This document shows positions 1 to 19,371 of a DNA stretch of 27,463 bases, piece after piece. The notes under the pieces were generated by a model that saw only the letters and a program-made list of their open reading frames with translations, was not told the DNA's origin and did no database searches. The stretch comes from a bacterium (GTDB lineage: Bacteria; Sysuimicrobiota; Sysuimicrobiia; Sysuimicrobiales; Humicultoraceae): NCBI GenBank assembly GCA_041497675.1, contig JBGQGY010000033.1:1-27463 (forward strand). The letters are read 5' to 3'. Positions within the stretch are counted from its first letter, which is position 1, and every line of letters begins with the position of its first letter. The position numbers and the translations under genes were made by a program.

Positions 1-166
1 CCACAAGCAACGTCTTGCCTCGGATCGCGACCGGAGCGCTGGCATGCGCCATCTCGGGTCCGACGAGCGCACCCCACACCCGGCGGGCATGTGCCAACCG
101 CGCGGCCGGTTCGAGCCCCCACCCTGCTGCCGCCCGTGCTAGGATCTCTCGTATTGGGGTAACCAC
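1..166 (-). CDS. dciA: DUF721/DciA-family helicase loader protein, N-terminal part (runs off the window)
   Basis: Hand translation from GTG at 166, preceded by GGAGG: MVTPIREILARAAAGWGLEPAARLAHARRVWGALVGPEMAHASAPVAIRGKTLLV. Has the W..LVG...A....P....G.L.V pattern of DUF721 and overlaps the recF 3' end, the usual position. Not in the ORF track. Confidence 0.8.
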   Translation of the reverse strand, partial: MVTPIREILARAAAGWGLEPAARLAHARRVWGALVGPEMAHASAPVAIRGKTLLV

Positions 167-1248
167 GTGCCTCCCCTTAGCGTTCCGGCTTCAACCGCCA
201 CCACACACACCCGAGGTGCGTCGGGCGGCAGTTCCGTGGCCGTCAACAGAACCTGCCCGGCGCCGCTCAAGTCGAGCACGCGCCGCTGGCGGACGTGGTC
301 CAGTTCTGCCAGCGCGTCATCCAGCAATAATACCGGGGGCCCGCCTACCTCGCCCGACATGACCTCGCGCTCAGCCAGCCGAATAGCCAGCATAACCGTC
401 CGCCATTGTCCCTGCGACCCTACGCTACGCAAGGCGTGGTTGTCCAGCGATAAGAGGAGCTCGTCCCGCTGCGGTCCTGTGAGCGTGACCCCTCGTCGAG
501 ATTCTTCGGCGCGCCGCTGGGCAATTTGCCCCCTTGCATCCGTGGTCATCTCTTCTTCGCCTGTCCCCTGCCAGACGGCCTGATACACCACGCGGAGGTC
601 GCCTTCCCCTCCCAAGCGCTCGAACCACATGTTGGCGGCCGGACCTAGTCTCTCGATATAGCCCCGCCGGTGGATTGTCAACCGTACGCCCAGCGCGATC
701 ATCTGTGCGTCCCACGGATCTGTGCTGGCCGCGCGGCCCTGCCGGAGTGCCACGTTGCGCTGCATGAGCACTCGGTGGTAGCGATGCAGCGCAAAGTAGT
801 ACGCGGGACTGAGCTGGGAGAGCGCGGCATCGATGATACGGCGCCGCGCCGCGCCGGACCCGCGAATTACGTCCATGTCCCACGGTGCCACCATAACGAC
901 TGGCAGCCTCCCGAGTACGCTCCCGCGGGGCGTTAGGGCGCCGTTGACCTTCAACTGCACCGCTGCTCGTGCGTCATCTCGGCGGAGCGTGGCCTCGAGC
1001 TCCTCTTCGCGACCCGGTCGTGCAATGAACGCGCGGATTCGCCCGGCATCTTGGCCGAACCGGATCGTTTCTTCTTCATGCGCTGTTCGGTGTGATCGAC
1101 CGGTTGCGACGAGATACACGGCTTCGAGCAGGTTGGATTTCCCGCCACCGTTGGGTCCGGTAAACGCGGTAATCCCAGGTTCTATCGCGAGATCGACGCG
1201 CTCATAGTTACGAAACTCGCGGAGCCACAGCTGGCGTAGTCGGTGCAT
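139..1248 (-). CDS. recF: DNA replication and repair protein RecF
   Basis: FRNY motif, Walker A GPNGGGKS, SQGQ signature, LLLDDALAELD Walker B/D-loop; located downstream of dnaN. Confidence 0.97.
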   Translation of the reverse strand: MHRLRQLWLREFRNYERVDLAIEPGITAFTGPNGGGKSNLLEAVYLVATGRSHRTAHEEETIRFGQDAGRIRAFIARPGREEELEATLRRDDARAAVQLKVNGALTPRGSVLGRLPVVMVAPWDMDVIRGSGAARRRIIDAALSQLSPAYYFALHRYHRVLMQRNVALRQGRAASTDPWDAQMIALGVRLTIHRRGYIERLGPAANMWFERLGGEGDLRVVYQAVWQGTGEEEMTTDARGQIAQRRAEESRRGVTLTGPQRDELLLSLDNHALRSVGSQGQWRTVMLAIRLAEREVMSGEVGGPPVLLLDDALAELDHVRQRRVLDLSGAGQVLLTATELPPDAPRVCVVAVEAGTLRGGTWLPQYERS

Positions 1249-1480
1249 GGGCTTCTCTCACTACGAGAATTGTACCGCCGCCGCCCTGTAGGGTGATCCT
1301 ATCCCCGGGTCTAATTTGGCGTCCTCGTCGTGTTTCCACCTGACCATTTACCCGTACCCGCCCCTGACCAATGACGGTTTTAGCTTCTCCTCCGGTCGTG
1401 ACGAGGTTCGCCCACTTTAGGAGTGCCCCGAGTACAATCTGTGGCGTACGAATATACACTTCCCGTTTAGGTGGCAACAC
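1208..1480 (-). CDS. yaaA: S4-domain RNA-binding protein, YaaA family
   Basis: LGALLKWANLVTTGGEAK...VRVNGQVETRRGRQIRPGD; lies between dnaN and recF. Start uncertain (1480, 1477 or 1459). Confidence 0.9.
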   Translation of the reverse strand: MLPPKREVYIRTPQIVLGALLKWANLVTTGGEAKTVIGQGRVRVNGQVETRRGRQIRPGDRITLQGGGGTILVVREAHAPTTPAVAPRVS

Positions 1481-2576
1481 GCACCGGCGCCAGCACGTAG
1501 GTGTAATCGGTCTGTCCCGTCGGCCGGATGGAGCCCGGACTCAGCGGTCCGGTAAGGTCCAGCGCAATTTCCTCCGTGTCGATGACTTGAAGACAGTCGA
1601 GCAGATATCTGGCGTTGAACGCCGTCTGAATCGTCTCTCCTTCGGCGACAACAGGAATAGTCTCTTCAGAGCTGCCAAACTCCGGCGTGTTCGACGCAAG
1701 GTTCATCGTGTCGGCTGTCGCTTGTAGCCGTACGACGTTTGCGGAGTCCCGCGCGGTAATCGCTACCCGTTTGACTGCAGCGAGCATCTTTTCCGTCCCA
1801 ATGATGAGGTGCTGTTTATGGCCTTGGGGGATAACCTGCTGATAGTTGGGGAATGGTCCTGGAATGAGTCGGCTCACCAAACGTGCTCCAGGAAACGTAA
1901 ACACGATCTGGTTTTCTGCCAGTGCAATCTCGACCAGTCCTTCTCCGCCCGCCAGTGCGCGCACAAGTTCTCCCATAGCTTTCGCCGGCACAATCACTCC
2001 GACTTTTTGTGTCGCCGGCGTGCTAAGCTTCGCTGTTCGGAGCGCTAGCCGGCCACCGTCCGTGGCGACGAGCCGGATTTCATCACCGTCTAATACAAGA
2101 TACAGTCCGGTTAAGAACACGCGGGTTTCGTCTGTGGATACTGCGAATCCTGTTTGCCGAACCATCGTCCGTAAGAGACCTCCGTCGATAGTCGCTACGA
2201 CTGCCGTATCTACTTCAGGCATTAGCGGGAACTCGCTTGCTGGGATCCCAACGAGATCGTAGGTAATCCGCTCACACTGCAGCTCAACATTCCGGCCGTT
2301 TTCGTCGACTTTGATTTGGACCTGTCCGGCAGGCAGATTTGCAACAATCTCCGTAAACAACCGCGCGGGAAGAGTAATTGCACCGCCTTTTTTGATCGTC
2401 GCCGGGATCGTCGTTTGAATTCCATGATCCAAATCCGTCGCGGCAAACTTTACCCCATCTTTCTGTGTTTCAAGCAACACATTCGACAAGATCGGCATCG
2501 CGACTCGCGTTGACACCGCACGGCCAACAAGTGTCATAGCTCGGTTGAGCTGTTCCTGCGAGCAGGTAAATAACAT
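1467..2576 (-). CDS. dnaN: DNA polymerase III beta sliding clamp
   Basis: PILSNVLL, ATDLD, STDETRVFLTG, VATDGGRLA, FPNYQQVIP, AFNARYLLD and C-terminal APVR motifs; 369 aa. Confidence 0.98.
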   Translation of the reverse strand: MLFTCSQEQLNRAMTLVGRAVSTRVAMPILSNVLLETQKDGVKFAATDLDHGIQTTIPATIKKGGAITLPARLFTEIVANLPAGQVQIKVDENGRNVELQCERITYDLVGIPASEFPLMPEVDTAVVATIDGGLLRTMVRQTGFAVSTDETRVFLTGLYLVLDGDEIRLVATDGGRLALRTAKLSTPATQKVGVIVPAKAMGELVRALAGGEGLVEIALAENQIVFTFPGARLVSRLIPGPFPNYQQVIPQGHKQHLIIGTEKMLAAVKRVAITARDSANVVRLQATADTMNLASNTPEFGSSEETIPVVAEGETIQTAFNARYLLDCLQVIDTEEIALDLTGPLSPGSIRPTGQTDYTYVLAPVRVAT

Positions 2577-2621
2577 TTCGAACTCCCTCTCTTACTGAAG
2601 TAATTCTATTGTAGAAAGAAC

Positions 2622-2782
2622 TAGTAGTCGTAGTAAGGGGTGTGGATAGTGTGGATGAAGTGTTGTTTTAGGCACTAGGTACCGCGAGAGAGGCATTTTG
2701 GTGATGGGGGTGGCGTGTGGATAACCAGGGCCAAAAGACCTATGGTGCACACGCAGAGACAAGGAAAGCAATGTTATGCACA
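2622..2782. promoter_or_regulatory. oriC: oriC unwinding half: DnaA-trios plus DnaA boxes in the dnaA-dnaN spacer
   Basis: TAG TAG TCG TAG TAA (2622-2636), GGGG, tandem boxes TGTGGATAG (2641-2649) and TGTGGATGA (2650-2658), perfect TGTGGATAA (2716-2724), TTATGCACA (2774-2782); AT-rich stretch at about 2590-2620. Confidence 0.88.
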
Positions 2783-2785
2783 TGT

Positions 2786-4132
2786 TCAGCCGGCGTGTCG
2801 TTGTAGGTCTTCGTTCAACCGCTTGATACTTGCAGCCAAATAGGCGTCCTGGCGTAGGGCTTCTCGCACCCGCCGGCAGGCGTGGATGACAGTCGTATGG
2901 TCGCGGCCCCCAAACTCTTCGCCGATCCGCGGCAGAGAGGCTTCGGTGAGTTCGCGCGCGAGATACATGGCGATCTGGCGAGGGAACGCGACGCCTTTCG
3001 TCCGGCGCTTTGCGCGCATTTCTTCCGGACCGATCCCAAAAAACTCAGCCACAGCGAGTTGGATGGCCTGGATAGTTACCACGCGTGCGCGAGCGGGCGG
3101 CAAGAGATCACGGAGGACGTCGGCGGCAAGATCGACGGTGACAGAAGCACGCGTCAGGGAGGCATACGCGACCACACGGACAAGCGCTCCCTCAAGCTCG
3201 CGGATGTTCGAATGAATGCGTTGCGCGATAAACTCGGCGACGTCATCGGGTACAGGGATCCGTTCCATCTCCCCTTTCTTGCGGAGAATAGCAATGCGCG
3301 TTTCGAGGTCGGGCGGCTGGATATCCGCGATCAGCCCCCACTCAAACCGGCTTCGAAGCCGGGCTTCAAGTGTCGGGATCTCCTTCGGGGGACGATCGGA
3401 GGTAATAATGATCTGACGGCTCGACTCGTGTAGGGTGTTGAACGTGTGGAAAAACTCCTCCTGCGTGCGTTCCTTCCCGGCGAGGAACTGGATATCGTCA
3501 ATGAGGAGTACGTCAACGTGCCGATACCGCTGGCGAAACTCGAGGGTCTTGTCGTCCCGGATAGCGTTGATGAGTTCGTTGGTAAACTTCTCGCTGCTAA
3601 TATATGCGACCCGAACAGCGCCACCATCAGCAAGAACCCGGTGCCCGATTGCTTGGAGGAGGTGCGTTTTCCCCAGGCCAACGCCGCCGTAGATGAACAA
3701 GGGATTATAGGCCCGCGCCGGCGCCTCGGCGACGGCAGTAGCGGCGGCGTGCGCGAAGCGGTTGCCTGCACCGACGACGAACGTTTCAAAGGTGTACTTC
3801 GGGGATAGATGTAGACTGTCCCGGTTGCGAAGCAAAGGGACAGATACGGACTGCACGGGTGGCGCGGTCCGCGGGGCATCGGCAACGGTAATTTGAACGT
3901 TGAGCGGGCGCCCGCCCGCCACCGAGAGCGCAGTTCGCACGGTGCCGAGGAGGCGTTGCTCGACCCACTCTTTGGCGAACCGATTCGGGACAGCCAGAAT
4001 GAACGTGTCCCCCTGTAGCCCGACTGGCCGCATGATCTTGAGGAACGACTCTAGAGTCGGCTTGTTCAGCTGGCCTTCAATGTGCCGCAGAGCCTCTGCC
4101 CAGAGCGTTGTCGGAGGTACATCAATCGACAC
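2786..4132 (-). CDS. dnaA: Chromosomal replication initiator DnaA
   Basis: YTFETFVVGAGN, YNPLFIYGGVGLGKTHL, LLIDDIQF, RLRSRFEWGL, NIRELEGAL, GGRDHTTVIHA; RBS GAGAGGAG. Confidence 0.99.
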   Translation of the reverse strand: MSIDVPPTTLWAEALRHIEGQLNKPTLESFLKIMRPVGLQGDTFILAVPNRFAKEWVEQRLLGTVRTALSVAGGRPLNVQITVADAPRTAPPVQSVSVPLLRNRDSLHLSPKYTFETFVVGAGNRFAHAAATAVAEAPARAYNPLFIYGGVGLGKTHLLQAIGHRVLADGGAVRVAYISSEKFTNELINAIRDDKTLEFRQRYRHVDVLLIDDIQFLAGKERTQEEFFHTFNTLHESSRQIIITSDRPPKEIPTLEARLRSRFEWGLIADIQPPDLETRIAILRKKGEMERIPVPDDVAEFIAQRIHSNIRELEGALVRVVAYASLTRASVTVDLAADVLRDLLPPARARVVTIQAIQLAVAEFFGIGPEEMRAKRRTKGVAFPRQIAMYLARELTEASLPRIGEEFGGRDHTTVIHACRRVREALRQDAYLAASIKRLNEDLQRHAG

Positions 4133-16008: not shown

Positions 16009-16955
16009 GCGCGTCACTCACCGCGACCCTCCCGACCATCGACGACATTCGCGCTGCGGCCACGCGGATCGCTCCGGACATCCGCCGGACACCCCTGCAT
16101 CCGGTCGACGACGGGATCTTCTTGAAACTCGAAAGCCTCCAGCCGACGGGATCGTTCAAAGTGCGCGGGGCCTCCAACCACCTGCGGCAGGTGGCCGCGA
16201 CTGTTCGCGGCGTGATCACCGCATCTTCGGGCAACCACGGCCAGGCCGTCGCATATGTGGCGGGCCGGCTGGGCATCCCGGCGGTCGTCGTCGTGCCGGA
16301 GACCGTCACGCCGATCAAGGCGACGAGGATCGAAGGATTTGGCGCGGAGTTGATCCGGTGCGGCACGACAATGCCCGAACGGACCGAGTTGGCCAAGCGT
16401 CTGGCGGCGGAGCGAGGGTTGCACTTTGTGCCGTCATTTGACGATCCGATGATCATCGCCGGTCAGGGGACGTGCGGCCTGGAAATCGGCGAGCAGGCTG
16501 GCGAAGTCGCGGTCGTGGCGGCGCCGACCGGCGGCGGGGGGCTGCTGTCCGGCGTAGCGCTTGTGCTGAAAACACTGCGGCCCGACATCCGGGTTGTGGG
16601 GGTAGAGCCGCAGGGACTTCGCCGCTTTGCCGTCTCTCGGGCCGCCGGAACCAGGACTATGGTACCGTTCGCGGACACCATTGCCGACGGTCTGCGTGGA
16701 CAGCAACCCGGGGTGATGACCTTGGCGGCGACGGCGAGCACGGTGGACGAGTTCGTGGGGATCGACGACGAGGCCATCGGCGATGCGATTCGGAAACTCT
16801 ACCTGGACGCGAACCTTGTTGTCGAACCCTCCGGCGCCATCGCGATGGCGGCGCTCATGAGCGGAGCAGTGACCCAGCGACCGGCTGTCGCGGTGGTGAG
16901 CGGCGGCAACCTCGATCCACATCTGTTGACAACGCTTCTGTTGGGGACCACCTAA
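16005..16955 (+). CDS. PLP-dependent threonine/serine dehydratase (or serine racemase-like), no ACT domain
   Basis: [45 protein letters not shown]. Confidence 0.9.
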
Positions 16956-17067
16956 GCAATCCTCGAAAGACCGTCTGATTTTCTGACATCGTCCTGTCGA
17001 GATTGACCGTGAAATTCAGCGATATGACGAGATAATCCCCCGATTTCCGCACCCAACAGTTCATAGG

Positions 17068-17122
17068 GTACAAATGTTCGTGTGCTTTCCCCTTGCGTAT
17101 ACGTACATATGTTCGCTATTAT
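17068..17122 (+). promoter_or_regulatory. lexA promoter with two SOS boxes
   Basis: GTACAAATGTTCG (17068-17080) and GTACATATGTTCG (17103-17115). The second box lies in the spacer of TTGCGT (17093-17098)-18 bp-TATTAT (17117-17122). Confidence 0.8.
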
Positions 17123-17141
17123 GCCGGAAGGAGGTGAGCCC

Positions 17142-17771
17142 GTGAGCGTCCCTCTCACCACTCGTCAGGAAGAGATCCTTCGGCATGTCGCCGGATGCAT
17201 TCGCCGTACCGGCATCGTCCCGTCCGTGCGGGAGATCGGCCAGGCGCTTGGCATGCGATCGCCATCGACGGTGCACCAGCACCTGACAGCATTGGCGCGC
17301 AAGGGGTACCTCCGCCGAGACGGCGATCGCATGCGTGTGCTGGAGATCACCAACCGGACCGTGCTCCCCGATCCGGATGACGTGGTCCACGTCCCGTTGG
17401 TCGGACGCGTGTCCGCCGGAACGCCGATTCTCGCAGAGCAGCACGTCGAAGACATGATCCCCATTCCACGACGTTTCGTCGGTTGGAACGAAGAGTGTTT
17501 TCTGTTGACCGTTCGTGGCGACAGCATGATCGGCGCGGGCATTTACGACGGCGACCTCGTGATCGTCCGGTGCCAACCGACGGCCGACCCTGGTGATCTC
17601 GTCGTCGCTCTGTTTGAAACTGAAGCCACAGTCAAACGGATGGCTATGGATGATGGACGGCCGTTCCTGCGTGCCGAGAATCCGGCGTATACCCCGATTC
17701 GTGGGGAGTTCGAACTTCTGGGCAAAGTCGTCGGCCTACTGCGCCGGTACCCGATTGAGAATCAGGCATGA
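17142..17771 (+). CDS. lexA: SOS repressor LexA
   Basis: LTTRQEEIL, PSVREIG...SPSTVHQHL..L..KGY, Ala-Gly cleavage site VSAGTP, GDSM serine, ATVKR lysine; RBS AAGGAGGTGA before GTG 17142. Confidence 0.97.
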   Translation: MSVPLTTRQEEILRHVAGCIRRTGIVPSVREIGQALGMRSPSTVHQHLTALARKGYLRRDGDRMRVLEITNRTVLPDPDDVVHVPLVGRVSAGTPILAEQHVEDMIPIPRRFVGWNEECFLLTVRGDSMIGAGIYDGDLVIVRCQPTADPGDLVVALFETEATVKRMAMDDGRPFLRAENPAYTPIRGEFELLGKVVGLLRRYPIENQA

Positions 17772-17923
17772 TCCACGCGTACCCGCTGATAGGGATCGGC
17801 GCAGAGAGGGTTTCACAGTCCTCCAGGGCGCCTTTTTGGAATGACCGGCAGGCCGTGCGGCTGAAGATACTGCTGATCGGCCTGTGCTTCATTGCCGCGG
17901 CCCTGCTCGAGGTCCCCCGGTGA
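17768..17923 (+). CDS. Small (51 aa) putative membrane protein coupled to lexA
   Basis: MIHAYPLIGIGAERVSQSSRAPFWNDRQAVRLKILLIGLCFIAAALLEVPR; ATGA overlap with the lexA stop, GTGA overlap with the next start, hydrophobic C-terminal segment. Not in the ORF track. Confidence 0.6.
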   Translation: MIHAYPLIGIGAERVSQSSRAPFWNDRQAVRLKILLIGLCFIAAALLEVPR

Positions 17924-18360
17924 AACCCGTTCTCCACGTCGCGACAGCTGCTCGTGTGAAGGCGGATGGTTGCATGACCTCAGCAGTGGTCCTGCGGTGG
18001 GACGGTACCGGTCCGCCCAGGGTGATCGTGCGGTCGCAGCAGAACGGCGACGTGATGGCGGCCGCGTATCGGGCACTCGTGCTGGGATTGACCGAGGCGC
18101 GACGCGTTCGCGCCCGTGCCGTGATCATCTACGCCGACAATGCGGACGTTGTTGCGCAACTGGACGGGACCGAGCGGCCGCCGGCGCCCGTGCTGGGTCT
18201 GTACTTGCAAGTCAGGGCACTGTTGAATGCCTTCCGGTCCGCCCAGGTGCAGCATTGCGCGGCGCGCGAGACCCCCGAAGCGGTCTTTGCCGCCGCGGCC
18301 GCGTTTCGCCGGCACCGGCCAGTTTACTCCGATCTCCCGCTCTGGGCTGCCGCTTCGTAA
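17920..18360 (+). CDS. RNase HI-like fold protein (RVT_3-like), apparently catalytically degenerate
   Basis: AAYRALVLGLTEARR..ARAVIIYADNADVVAQLDG...LYLQVRALLNAF aligns by eye with AEY.ALI.GL..A........V..DSELVV.Q..G...LY..A..LL..F; most acidic catalytic residues are missing. Confidence 0.75.
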   Translation: MKPVLHVATAARVKADGCMTSAVVLRWDGTGPPRVIVRSQQNGDVMAAAYRALVLGLTEARRVRARAVIIYADNADVVAQLDGTERPPAPVLGLYLQVRALLNAFRSAQVQHCAARETPEAVFAAAAAFRRHRPVYSDLPLWAAAS

Positions 18361-18404
18361 GCGCAGGGCTGCGGCGGTCGGCCGCAGAAGTCTCTCCCCC
18401 CACC

Positions 18405-18944
18405 ATGACACAGGAAGCAGCTGCGGCTCGCCTCGCGGAGGGTGAGAAACACCTGGAGACCGGCGCCTGGGAAGCCGCCGAGACGGAGTTCCGGCGCGCA
18501 GTCGAAGCCGATGCGTCCTCCGCGCTTGCGTATAGCAAACTCGGTGTGGCCCTCGTTCACCAGCGCCGGCTTGATGAAGCCGGGCAGGCGTTTTCTCGCG
18601 CCGTGGCGATCGACCCGAAGTACGCGCCGGCGTGGAGCAATCTGGGGAACATCTACCGCGAGAGCGGACGCACCGAACAAGCCCTCGACGCCTATCAGCG
18701 TGCGATCGCCGCGGATCCAGACTACTGGATCGCGCACCAGAACCTTGGCGGACTCTACCGGAAAATGGGCCGGATGAGTGAGGCGATAGCGTCGCTGCGC
18801 AAAGCCACGCGACTCTCGGCGCAAGCGGCGCTCCGCCCCACGGGAGCAGGTAAGGGCCGGCGGCTCGGGTGTCTGGGGGGTGCGGCATTGTGGTTGATCG
18901 TGTTTGCGGCGGCGGCTCTGATCTTTCGCACGCATGGCGGATGA
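18405..18944 (+). CDS. Tetratricopeptide repeat protein with C-terminal transmembrane helix
   Basis: About 4 TPRs (AYSKLG, AWSNLGNIY, AHQNLGGLY) and C-terminal ALWLIVFAAAALIF; likely start ATG 18405. Confidence 0.88.
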   Translation: MTQEAAAARLAEGEKHLETGAWEAAETEFRRAVEADASSALAYSKLGVALVHQRRLDEAGQAFSRAVAIDPKYAPAWSNLGNIYRESGRTEQALDAYQRAIAADPDYWIAHQNLGGLYRKMGRMSEAIASLRKATRLSAQAALRPTGAGKGRRLGCLGGAALWLIVFAAAALIFRTHGG

Positions 18945-19047
18945 CGTGTCGGGACGCCGCGAGTGGGAATAGCCTATCGTGAGGTCCGGTTATCGTATCG
19001 GGCGCCGGTCCGCCCGAATGTGTCGTGACTGGTGAGGAGGACGTGTG

Positions 19048-19371
19048 ATGGCCAAGTTGCTCGCGGTAACAGAAGAGACGTTCGACCAGGAAGTCCTGAA
19101 GGCCGGACTGCCTGTCCTGGTGGATTTTTGGGCCGAATGGTGCGGGCCGTGCCGGATGGTGGCGCCGATCGTAGAAGAACTTGCGACCGAATACGCCGGG
19201 CGAGTCAAGGTCACTAAGGTAGACATTGACGACAACCAGCGGCTCGCCATGCGGTACAGCATCATGAGCATCCCCACGCTCGGCGTATTCAAGGGTGGAG
19301 AACTCGTCGATCGGATCGTTGGCTACATGCCCAAACAGGAGTTGAAGCGCCGGTTGGACGGCGCGATCTAG
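19048..19371 (+). CDS. trxA: Thioredoxin
   Basis: VLVDFWAEWCGPC, SIPTL; RBS GAGGAGG. Confidence 0.98.
   Translation: MAKLLAVTEETFDQEVLKAGLPVLVDFWAEWCGPCRMVAPIVEELATEYAGRVKVTKVDIDDNQRLAMRYSIMSIPTLGVFKGGELVDRIVGYMPKQELKRRLDGAI

Follow-up and report, generated by a model that had tools for sequence, protein, structure and literature searches.

The stretch of bacterial DNA considered here, referred to throughout as the window, lies on contig JBGQGY010000033.1 of assembly GCA_041497675.1 (positions 1 to 27,463 of the forward strand, 27,463 nucleotides, from the family Humicultoraceae of the phylum Sysuimicrobiota). It carries a lexA gene and, a short distance downstream on the same strand, a gene for a protein of 146 amino acids (aa) that has an RNase H fold but has lost the residues needed for catalysis. 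The protein ends in a conserved tail resembling the short peptides with which polymerases and repair proteins dock on the beta sliding clamp, DnaN, and dnaN itself lies in the same window. The features that matter for what follows, including one small open reading frame (ORF) and a tetratricopeptide repeat (TPR) gene, are these:

17920..18360, + strand: gene for the dead RVT_3/RNase H-fold protein (P0001), 146 aa, from the ORF listing, Pfam, alignment, and a structure model
18325..18357, + strand: the C-terminal tail YSDLPLWAAAS, a putative beta-clamp-binding motif with its core DLPLW at 18331-18345, from alignment, model confidence, and co-folding
1467..2576, - strand: dnaN, the beta sliding clamp and proposed partner (Pfam DNA_pol3_beta, DNA_pol3_beta_2, and DNA_pol3_beta_3)
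17121..17771, + strand: lexA, 216 aa from the ATG at 17121 (TIGR00498), with an alternative in-frame GTG at 17142
17068..17079, + strand: LexA box 1, GTACAAATGTTC, of the GTAC-N4-GTTC type, from a motif scan
17103..17114, + strand: LexA box 2, GTACATATGTTC, 18 bases before the lexA ATG, from a motif scan
17768..17923, + strand: small ORF of 51 aa, whose ATG shares bases with the stop codon of lexA (as ATGA) and whose TGA shares bases with the GTG that opens the RNase H-fold gene (as GTGA)
18405..18944, + strand: gene for a TPR-repeat protein of 179 aa (TPR_11 at 2.4e-27 plus other TPR models), a conserved downstream neighbor

Is the reading frame at 17920..18360 a genuine gene? It opens with GTG, a start that agrees with the MKPVLHV starts of database homologs. 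A word-indexed search yields 29 homologs at E <= 1e-3, and a profile search of 1.84 billion representatives yields 744 matches at E <= 1e-3, 58 of which lie at E <= 1e-10; given these homologs and profile matches, the gene is real and under selection. RVT_3 (PF13456) is the sole Pfam family that matches the protein at E <= 1 (residues 37-125, E 4.9e-10, 39.8 bits against a cut-off of 21.6), and the NCBIfam equivalog models for RNase HI reach 18 bits against a cut-off of 140, far under threshold. An AlphaFold2 model built from an alignment of 25 homologs has a mean predicted local distance difference test score (pLDDT) of 82.9 and a predicted template modeling score of 0.78. The body of the model is confident, and residues 131-146 fall to a pLDDT of about 50, as a low-confidence, disordered linker and tail. 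Its five-stranded mixed sheet with flanking helices is the RNase H fold: the best Foldseek match among solved structures is the RNase H enzyme 3hst_B (E 1.9e-8, TM 0.74/0.77), followed by 4e19, 3aly, 2ehg, and 1g15, the last being E. coli RNase HI. The body is strongly basic: a count from the sequence gives 16 Arg, 2 Lys, and 11 acidic residues. The Arg residues conserved in the 25-sequence alignment (R26, R38, R51, R61, R62, and R99) hint at a possible contact with DNA or an RNA:DNA hybrid. By Pfam, the protein contains neither an IMS (Y-family) nor a RecA-like domain, as a component of the ImuA/ImuB mutasome would; the IMS matches of the genome are at other loci. An anti-phage defense role was also considered and set aside, as the PADLOC defense models match 0 families for this protein and 0 for the small ORF.

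Functional RNase HI carries four metal-binding carboxylates, D-E-D-D, and by alignment this set is not present here. Measured against RVT_3 proteins with the motifs DG, NxAEY, SDS, and NxxADxLA (P0122, P0138, P0131, and P0152), the four positions are occupied by Ala, Ala, Asp, and Val, the third Asp alone being kept. The corresponding segments are HVATAAR (residues 6-12), AAAY (47-50), YADN (71-74), and EAVFAAA (120-126), with YSDLPLWAAAS at 136-146. None of the catalytic positions is among the invariant columns of 25 family members, and the remaining Asp is replaced by Gly or Glu in some of them. Distant relatives that have the tail all lack motifs I, II, and IV as well. Because the catalytic loss is common to close homologs and to distant tailed relatives, the family reads as a long-standing pseudoenzyme lineage and not a recent wreck. 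A preliminary description of this DNA, made from the letters and their translations, had picked out VATAA, AAY, DN, EAVFA, and the tail, and these match the translation exactly. Its proposal of an RNase H fold is borne out by both the Pfam profile and the structure model, and its proposal that catalysis had been lost can be extended from the window protein, with its one remaining Asp, to the family as a whole, in which the tetrad is gone when the 25 sequences are aligned with active RVT_3 proteins.

Does the bacterium possess another RNase H of this type? Its own genome (G000, 98.6% complete) has 0 matches to PF00075 (RNase_H) and a single RVT_3 match, which is the dead protein itself; one RNase HII-family gene is present, and the dead protein is the product of the only type-1 RNase H-fold gene. 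In many relatives there is a second, canonical RVT_3 match, which stops short of the tail and may be an active enzyme. One protein from the profile search, P0159 (203 aa), retains all the catalytic motifs in its RVT_3/RNase_H domain (RVT_3 E 1.3e-27), after which come a long linker and GQLNLWE, a clamp-type motif of canonical form. Clamp-tethered, active RNase HI enzymes may therefore exist and may be ancestral to the dead family. Ten long RVT_3 matches that were scanned proved to be ordinary multidomain RVT_3/RNase_H proteins and offered no functional hint.

If the active site has been let go, what has been kept? The tail is the most conserved segment of the family, and the stretch preceding it (approximately residues 113-135) is the least conserved. 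All 25 sequences share D138, L139, L141, and W142, and at least 90% of them share P140, Y136, and A144. A conserved tail after a variable linker is the usual signature of a short linear motif borne on a flexible linker, here a putative one. In the ImuB protein of Mycobacterium tuberculosis, QLPLWG is the experimentally defined clamp motif according to PMC10421592, and DLPLWA differs from it at positions 1 and 6 only. The published consensus, as given in PMC11139829, is Q-phi-x-[L/M]-(x)-[F/L]; positions 2 and 4 of DLPLW fit it, position 5 is Trp as in ImuB, and position 1 is Asp, not Gln. Distant dead relatives end in QLPLW (P0101), QLSLVF (P0085), QLSLSL (P0117), LQLSF (P0067 and P0124), ETLSLF (P0081), DLPLF (P0061 and P0149), LQLPL (P0073), and QLVLPM (P0066). 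These candidate motifs are inside or close to the published consensus; the clamp-like tail noticed in the preliminary description is both fixed among close homologs and variable within recognizable bounds among distant ones.

How closely does the tail keep company with the loss of catalysis? A rough regular expression (xLxL[WF] or Q-phi-x-[LM](x)-hydrophobic) was applied to the last 28 residues of the 118 proteins of up to 260 aa among the 150 matches listed. A C-terminal clamp-like motif is found in 42 of 74 proteins without motifs I and IV, in 1 of 30 with both, and in 3 of 14 of mixed type; since these proteins are related to each other, the tallies describe a pattern and are no statistical test. 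For comparison with the background, a six-frame translation of the bacterium's own genome has [QDENST]LxL[WF] in the last 20 residues of 15 of 15,171 frames of at least 120 aa. Of the five such frames whose identity was checked, two are unnamed and the others encode a DAO oxidoreductase, an HD-GAF protein, and a radical SAM protein; none is a known clamp partner, and the scan thus supplies a background rate only. A radical SAM protein with an open frame of 420 aa (L096, G000:C30:1796-3058, - strand) ends in ...RDEQLVLFER, which resembles a canonical clamp motif. There is a radical SAM family annotated as a putative DNA modification/repair protein, to which L096 may belong. The DinB homolog of the genome (L010, G000:C256:1-1398; IMS E 2.2e-50) has ...GGLDELFR at its C terminus, which is of the clamp-type LF kind but lacks Gln, and because of this terminus the clamp of this lineage may tolerate a residue other than Gln at the first position.

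Can the tail be placed on the clamp encoded in the same window? The window DnaN matches solved clamps at E values down to 3.5e-65, with its residues 1-366 aligning to residues 1-365 of E. coli 1mmi. In a co-fold of the two, DnaN was represented by an alignment of 22 orthologs and the dead protein by its residues 115-146 in the alignment of 25. The three runs scored 0.01, 0.64, and 0.63, a median of 0.63, and the best of three controls scored 0.02, an outcome graded as support for binding. Solved complexes reach the mark that was applied in 116 of 157 cases, and mismatched pairs reach it in 2 of 215. The runs share at least 8% of contacts, and the pLDDT of the partner is at least 39. Tail residues 135-136, 139-142, and 144-145 are in predicted contact with DnaN residues 152, 155, 172, 174-177, 243, 247-248, 345-347, 361, and 363-364. 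PMC11139829 assigns residues 152, 155, 172, 174-177, 242, 246, 247, 360, and 362 to subsite I of the E. coli pocket, and residues 175, 320, 323, 344, and 362-365 to subsite II. Allowing for the one-residue net offset to 1mmi, the contact residues fit this pocket, and the predicted docking site is thus the canonical DnaN cleft, mainly subsite I. Fifteen of the 16 DnaN contact positions are invariant among the 22 orthologs, and the remaining one is conserved in at least 90%. Docking on DnaN, which the preliminary description had put forward, is in this way reproduced as a prediction, with one run of the three dissenting.

The genetic setting of the dead gene begins with lexA, whose product matches TIGR00498 (E 1.9e-58, 197 bits against a cut-off of 111), Peptidase_S24 (1.4e-29), and LexA_DNA_bind (1.1e-21). 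Two LexA boxes are found in the window, both just upstream of lexA, where 0.5 would be expected by chance; two or more occur in 4 of 100 shuffles. We take GTAC-N4-GTTC to be the target of the LexA of this lineage, from the logic of autoregulation and from its likeness to the cyanobacterial/Gram-positive box. Of 44 related loci with lexA, 41 carry one or more such boxes no farther than 200 bases from its start; in most loci there is one at about -17 to -21, and two of the three box-less loci run off the contig. No LexA box lies between lexA and the dead gene in any of the 44 loci. With its two boxes before lexA, the putative transcription unit has the predicted operators that mark a member of an SOS regulon. 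A scan of the bacterium's own genome gives 61 strict matches to the box, and in 9 of these the spacer is AT-rich. One match near an ImuB-like gene (C56:19618) was rejected as an operator, as it lies inside a coding frame and is probably there by chance. Outside the window, a LexA-box-like palindrome, CGAACGTATGTACG, at G000:C2:9019 precedes a 784-aa ORF by 52 bases. The N terminus of this ORF presumably resembles that of a replicative DnaB helicase, and the length of the ORF would fit an intein.

Between lexA and the dead gene lie 148 bases, and these are occupied by the conserved small ORF, a candidate membrane peptide. Its N terminus is variable, and conservation is seen over approximately the last 30 residues, which run from [FL]-x-D-D-R-x-L-[IV]-x-x-K through some 20 residues of hydrophobic helix to LEVPW; the conserved parts are also written F-W-x-D-R-x-x-V-R-L-K and LEVP[WR]. 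Combining two detection rules, which give 40 and 41 loci, places it in 44 of 46 related loci, the two misses being two copies of one genome without lexA at this place. Among 37 distinct sequences, the synonymous share of codon differences is 23% in the frame of the small ORF against 10% and 6% in the other two frames. It has no Pfam match. In two genomes (G014 and G012) it is kept after lexA where the dead gene has been lost. The preliminary description put the dead gene in a lexA operon but missed this small ORF bridging the two. An RNA element was also considered for the spacer and dropped, Rfam giving 0 matches at E <= 1 across 16900-19100.

Downstream, by tblastn, the TPR gene follows the dead gene in 9 of 9 loci and in 28 of the 30 best-scoring loci. 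The TPR protein has a hydrophobic C-terminal segment, RRLGCLGGAALWLIVFAAAALIF, which, read from the sequence, is a candidate membrane anchor. Its gene stays with the dead gene where lexA is absent and with lexA where the dead gene is absent. There are 0 terminator-like sites in 16900-19100 and one promoter-like site, at 17009-17036, upstream of the LexA boxes. Because of the ATGA and GTGA overlaps, the conserved small ORF, and the lack of a terminator-like site, lexA, the small membrane peptide, the dead RNase H-fold protein, and probably the TPR protein (44 bases farther on) would appear to be encoded in one LexA-autoregulated, translationally coupled unit, made as a single transcript. Contigs from four RNA-labelled runs include some from close relatives that cover lexA, one of which spans 17346-17827, from lexA into the small ORF. 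They give no cover on 17920-18360; contigs cannot show absence, so this neither supports nor refutes the operon.

How general is the linkage to lexA? The regulator gene stands directly before the dead gene, in the same orientation, in 8 of 9 loci from contigs chosen at one genome per species, in 29 of the 30 best-scoring loci from 94 genomes of the phylum, and in 7 of 7 metagenome loci of the same type; the three sets share genomes. These 30 were taken by score from among the matches in 86 genomes, and they belong to one order and seven families. The phylum tallies take in two unpublished genomes, G024 and G017, with no locus or alignment row from either. The order lexA, dead gene, TPR gene, and trx is kept even as LexA identity falls to 53-58%, and also in the one family that has lost the PALP enzyme on the left. 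One locus with the full block of PALP enzyme, lexA, small ORF, dead gene, TPR gene, and trx (L009, JAIMBI010000019.1) is titled 'Actinomycetes bacterium,' yet its LexA is 73% identical to that of the window; the bin label or contig assignment may be wrong. In the window, recF, dnaN, and dnaA (139-4132, - strand) lie 13-17 kb from the lexA locus, and in several relatives (for example, G025:C110, G055:C110, G005:C24, and G092:C56) dnaN and the locus are separated by approximately 15-25 kb on one contig. The distance recurs, and therefore the lexA operon lies within a conserved origin-proximal region.

What might such a protein do? On balance, we lean toward a pseudo-RNase H, induced by damage, whose C-terminal motif lodges in the cleft of loaded clamps where polymerases bind. 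The lexA transcript would encode a noncatalytic RNase H-fold protein, which should become more abundant once damage to DNA has led to cleavage of LexA. The disordered tail of the protein, Y-x-D-L-P-L-W, would act as a beta-clamp-binding motif, with L141 and W142 entering the hydrophobic subsite of the same DnaN cleft that polymerases and repair proteins also use, and its small basic body would sit on DNA or the primer-template beside the clamp. The protein would in this way be a damage-induced occupant or adaptor of loaded clamps: either a brake, which contends for the cleft with the replicative polymerase, or an adaptor, which keeps clamps in place at primers or gaps. The cotranslated membrane peptide and the TPR protein would see to the other tasks of the operon. 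The fold, the catalytic loss, the conserved tail, the gene order, the codon overlaps, and the LexA boxes are seen directly in this analysis; beyond them we infer co-transcription, damage induction, and any nucleic acid contact, as well as clamp binding, the last from structure prediction combined with motif logic.

Several observations weigh against this picture. (i) One genome (L008, which is the same as L016, labelled Candidatus Thermofontivivens primus) keeps the dead RNase H and TPR genes without lexA, the small ORF, or a LexA box at the locus, its LexA being encoded elsewhere. (ii) Genus g5, with two genomes, keeps lexA, the small ORF, the TPR gene, and trx, and the dead gene is cleanly missing. 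(iii) In a distant tailed clade, the flanks available for three short metagenome loci contain no lexA, and the gene order kept within one bacterial order may be in part inherited synteny. (iv) One of the three co-fold runs scored 0.01, and the passing score may reflect likeness to the abundant solved clamp-peptide complexes and not binding. (v) Position 1 of the motif is an invariant Asp and not Gln. According to PMC11139829, changing Gln to Glu, Ala, or Gly in the QLDLF peptide strongly cuts affinity, and because such replacements weaken binding, the invariant Asp needs explaining.

The exceptions to linkage have some further features. The g5 loci are L084 (G014:C3) and L083 (G012:C25), and both genomes have a second LexA paralog at approximately 53% identity. 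The distant-clade loci have the tails LQLPLSV, PKLPLVL, and LQLRLL and no TPR neighbor, and the gene that follows them is, we presume from its sequence, cysteine desulfurase-like. An ESM Atlas cluster for this clade has Candidatus Dormiibacterota as its commonest taxon, which serves as a lead only. The idea that homologs would be linked to lexA therefore stands for 29 of the 30 best loci, across several families and with conserved boxes, but not for the one genome without lexA at this place or for the unlinked distant clade. The tail is a more faithful companion of the dead domain than lexA is. Because of this, the pairing of tail and domain fits a primary clamp-related role that was put under SOS control in this lineage.

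Could the tail have a partner other than the clamp? TPR domains commonly bind short terminal peptides, and the tail could be a handle for the TPR protein or for the membrane peptide. The three proteins would then make up an SOS module at the membrane, such as a checkpoint on division or the envelope, in which the clamp plays no part. The faithful presence of the TPR gene next door (9 of 9 loci and 28 of the 30 best), its retention where lexA is gone, the hydrophobic, membrane-type segments in both flanking products, and an Asp at position 1 that is unusual for clamp motifs all speak for this. Nevertheless, we think it unlikely: g5 keeps the TPR gene and small ORF without the dead gene, and the distant tailed clade lacks a TPR neighbor, so that the dead and TPR genes can exist apart; the distant tail variants follow the clamp-motif consensus, and co-folding places the tail in the DnaN pocket with controls no higher than 0.02. 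A different objection accepts a clamp-binding pseudo-RNase H but takes it out of the damage response. The gene would be constitutive, driven by a separate promoter located in the small ORF or beyond it, and it would stand behind lexA because gene order near the origin was inherited. The whole block is indeed syntenic (PALP enzyme, lexA, dead gene, TPR gene, and trx, with dnaN on the same contigs at a distance of 15-20 kb), the dead gene occurs without lexA in one genome and unlinked in the distant clade, and no LexA box stands directly before it. This we regard as quite unlikely, though, as the conserved ATGA and GTGA overlaps favor coupled translation of a single mRNA, no terminator-like site is present after lexA, and the order of lexA and the dead gene outlasts changes in the left flank.

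Might the protein be an enzyme after all? It would then be a clamp-tethered nuclease with a noncanonical active site, covering RNase HI duty in a genome otherwise devoid of type-1 RNase H. That genome, with no PF00075 match, a single RVT_3 match, and one RNase HII-family gene, leaves room for such a role, and the active-looking P0159, ending in QLNLW, offers a precedent of sorts. Yet three of the four carboxylates have become Ala, Ala, and Val, and the fourth varies, being Gly or Glu in some members. There is no conserved alternative acidic cluster, as E59 is the sole conserved acidic residue (at least 90%) besides D138 of the tail, and many relatives that carry the dead gene have a second canonical RVT_3 match as well. 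We consider a surviving nuclease highly improbable. A bolder extension of the clamp-docking pseudo-RNase H is that the entire lexA operon forms a self-contained, coupled damage checkpoint, in which a division-halting membrane peptide is paired with a p21-like pseudo-RNase H that plugs the clamp cleft, both made from a single mRNA upon cleavage of LexA. In such a checkpoint, the pseudo-RNase H may recognize primer RNA:DNA junctions so as to pause or reroute replication. We offer this as a speculation, and a doubtful one. If true, it would be a bacterial counterpart of the inhibition of PCNA by a damage-induced protein, built from a dead nuclease, and the dead, tailed RVT_3 proteins of other phyla would be an unrecognized class of clamp regulators.

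Why would one more clamp partner matter? Competitors for the clamp decide which polymerase or repair factor acts at a damaged fork. To our knowledge, nearly all known bacterial clamp partners are enzymes or else dead paralogs from polymerase or ATPase families. The protein described here is probably an undescribed damage-response accessory protein. Full-text searching of the literature, to the extent that texts were accessible, returned no description of a dead RNase H-fold clamp partner or of such a lexA operon, and the term 'RNase H' has 0 occurrences in a review of clamp partners (PMC11139829). If the clamp-docking reading is correct, the protein would be a new type of SOS component and a new pseudoenzyme serving as a clamp-bound adaptor or brake, and, to judge from the broader collection of dead relatives with tails, the idea may well reach past this uncultured lineage.

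How does this arrangement compare with known systems? For the 51-aa ORF, the nearest parallel would be the class of SOS-induced small membrane division inhibitors that includes YneA, SidA, and ChiZ (a class described in PMC6051672). Like them, it would be a small, LexA-controlled, single-helix membrane peptide encoded next to lexA; unlike them, it has no family match and is codirectional with and coupled to lexA, not divergent from it. For the dead RNase H-fold protein, a parallel in logic is found in occupants of the clamp cleft that regulate replication, such as UmuD2C of E. coli in its checkpoint role and the eukaryotic p21 on PCNA. The proposed logic would be the same, a damage-induced protein taking the polymerase-binding cleft of the clamp, but neither is homologous to the dead protein. 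In structure, the closest relatives are the RVT_3-type RNase HI enzymes, including the N-terminal domain of Rv2228c (3hst), Halobacterium RNase H1 (4e19), and Sulfolobus tokodaii RNase HI (3aly). With these the dead protein shares its fold, family, order of secondary structure elements, and size, and it differs from them in lacking catalytic motifs I, II, and IV and in having gained the conserved clamp-motif tail. A further comparison is with ImuB, the dead Y-family polymerase of the ImuA-ImuB-DnaE2 mutasome. The folds are unrelated (RNase H/RVT_3 rather than IMS), and the dead protein, at 146 aa, has no further domains. The bacterium's own genome has a weak IMS match that is maybe ImuB (28.3 bits, with no Pfam family at E <= 1e-5), and because of this match, the dead RNase H-fold protein would be an addition to ImuB and not its replacement. 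What the two have in common is the principle: an SOS-regulated pseudoenzyme that serves, or in this case would serve, as a clamp-bound hub, by means of a nearly identical motif.

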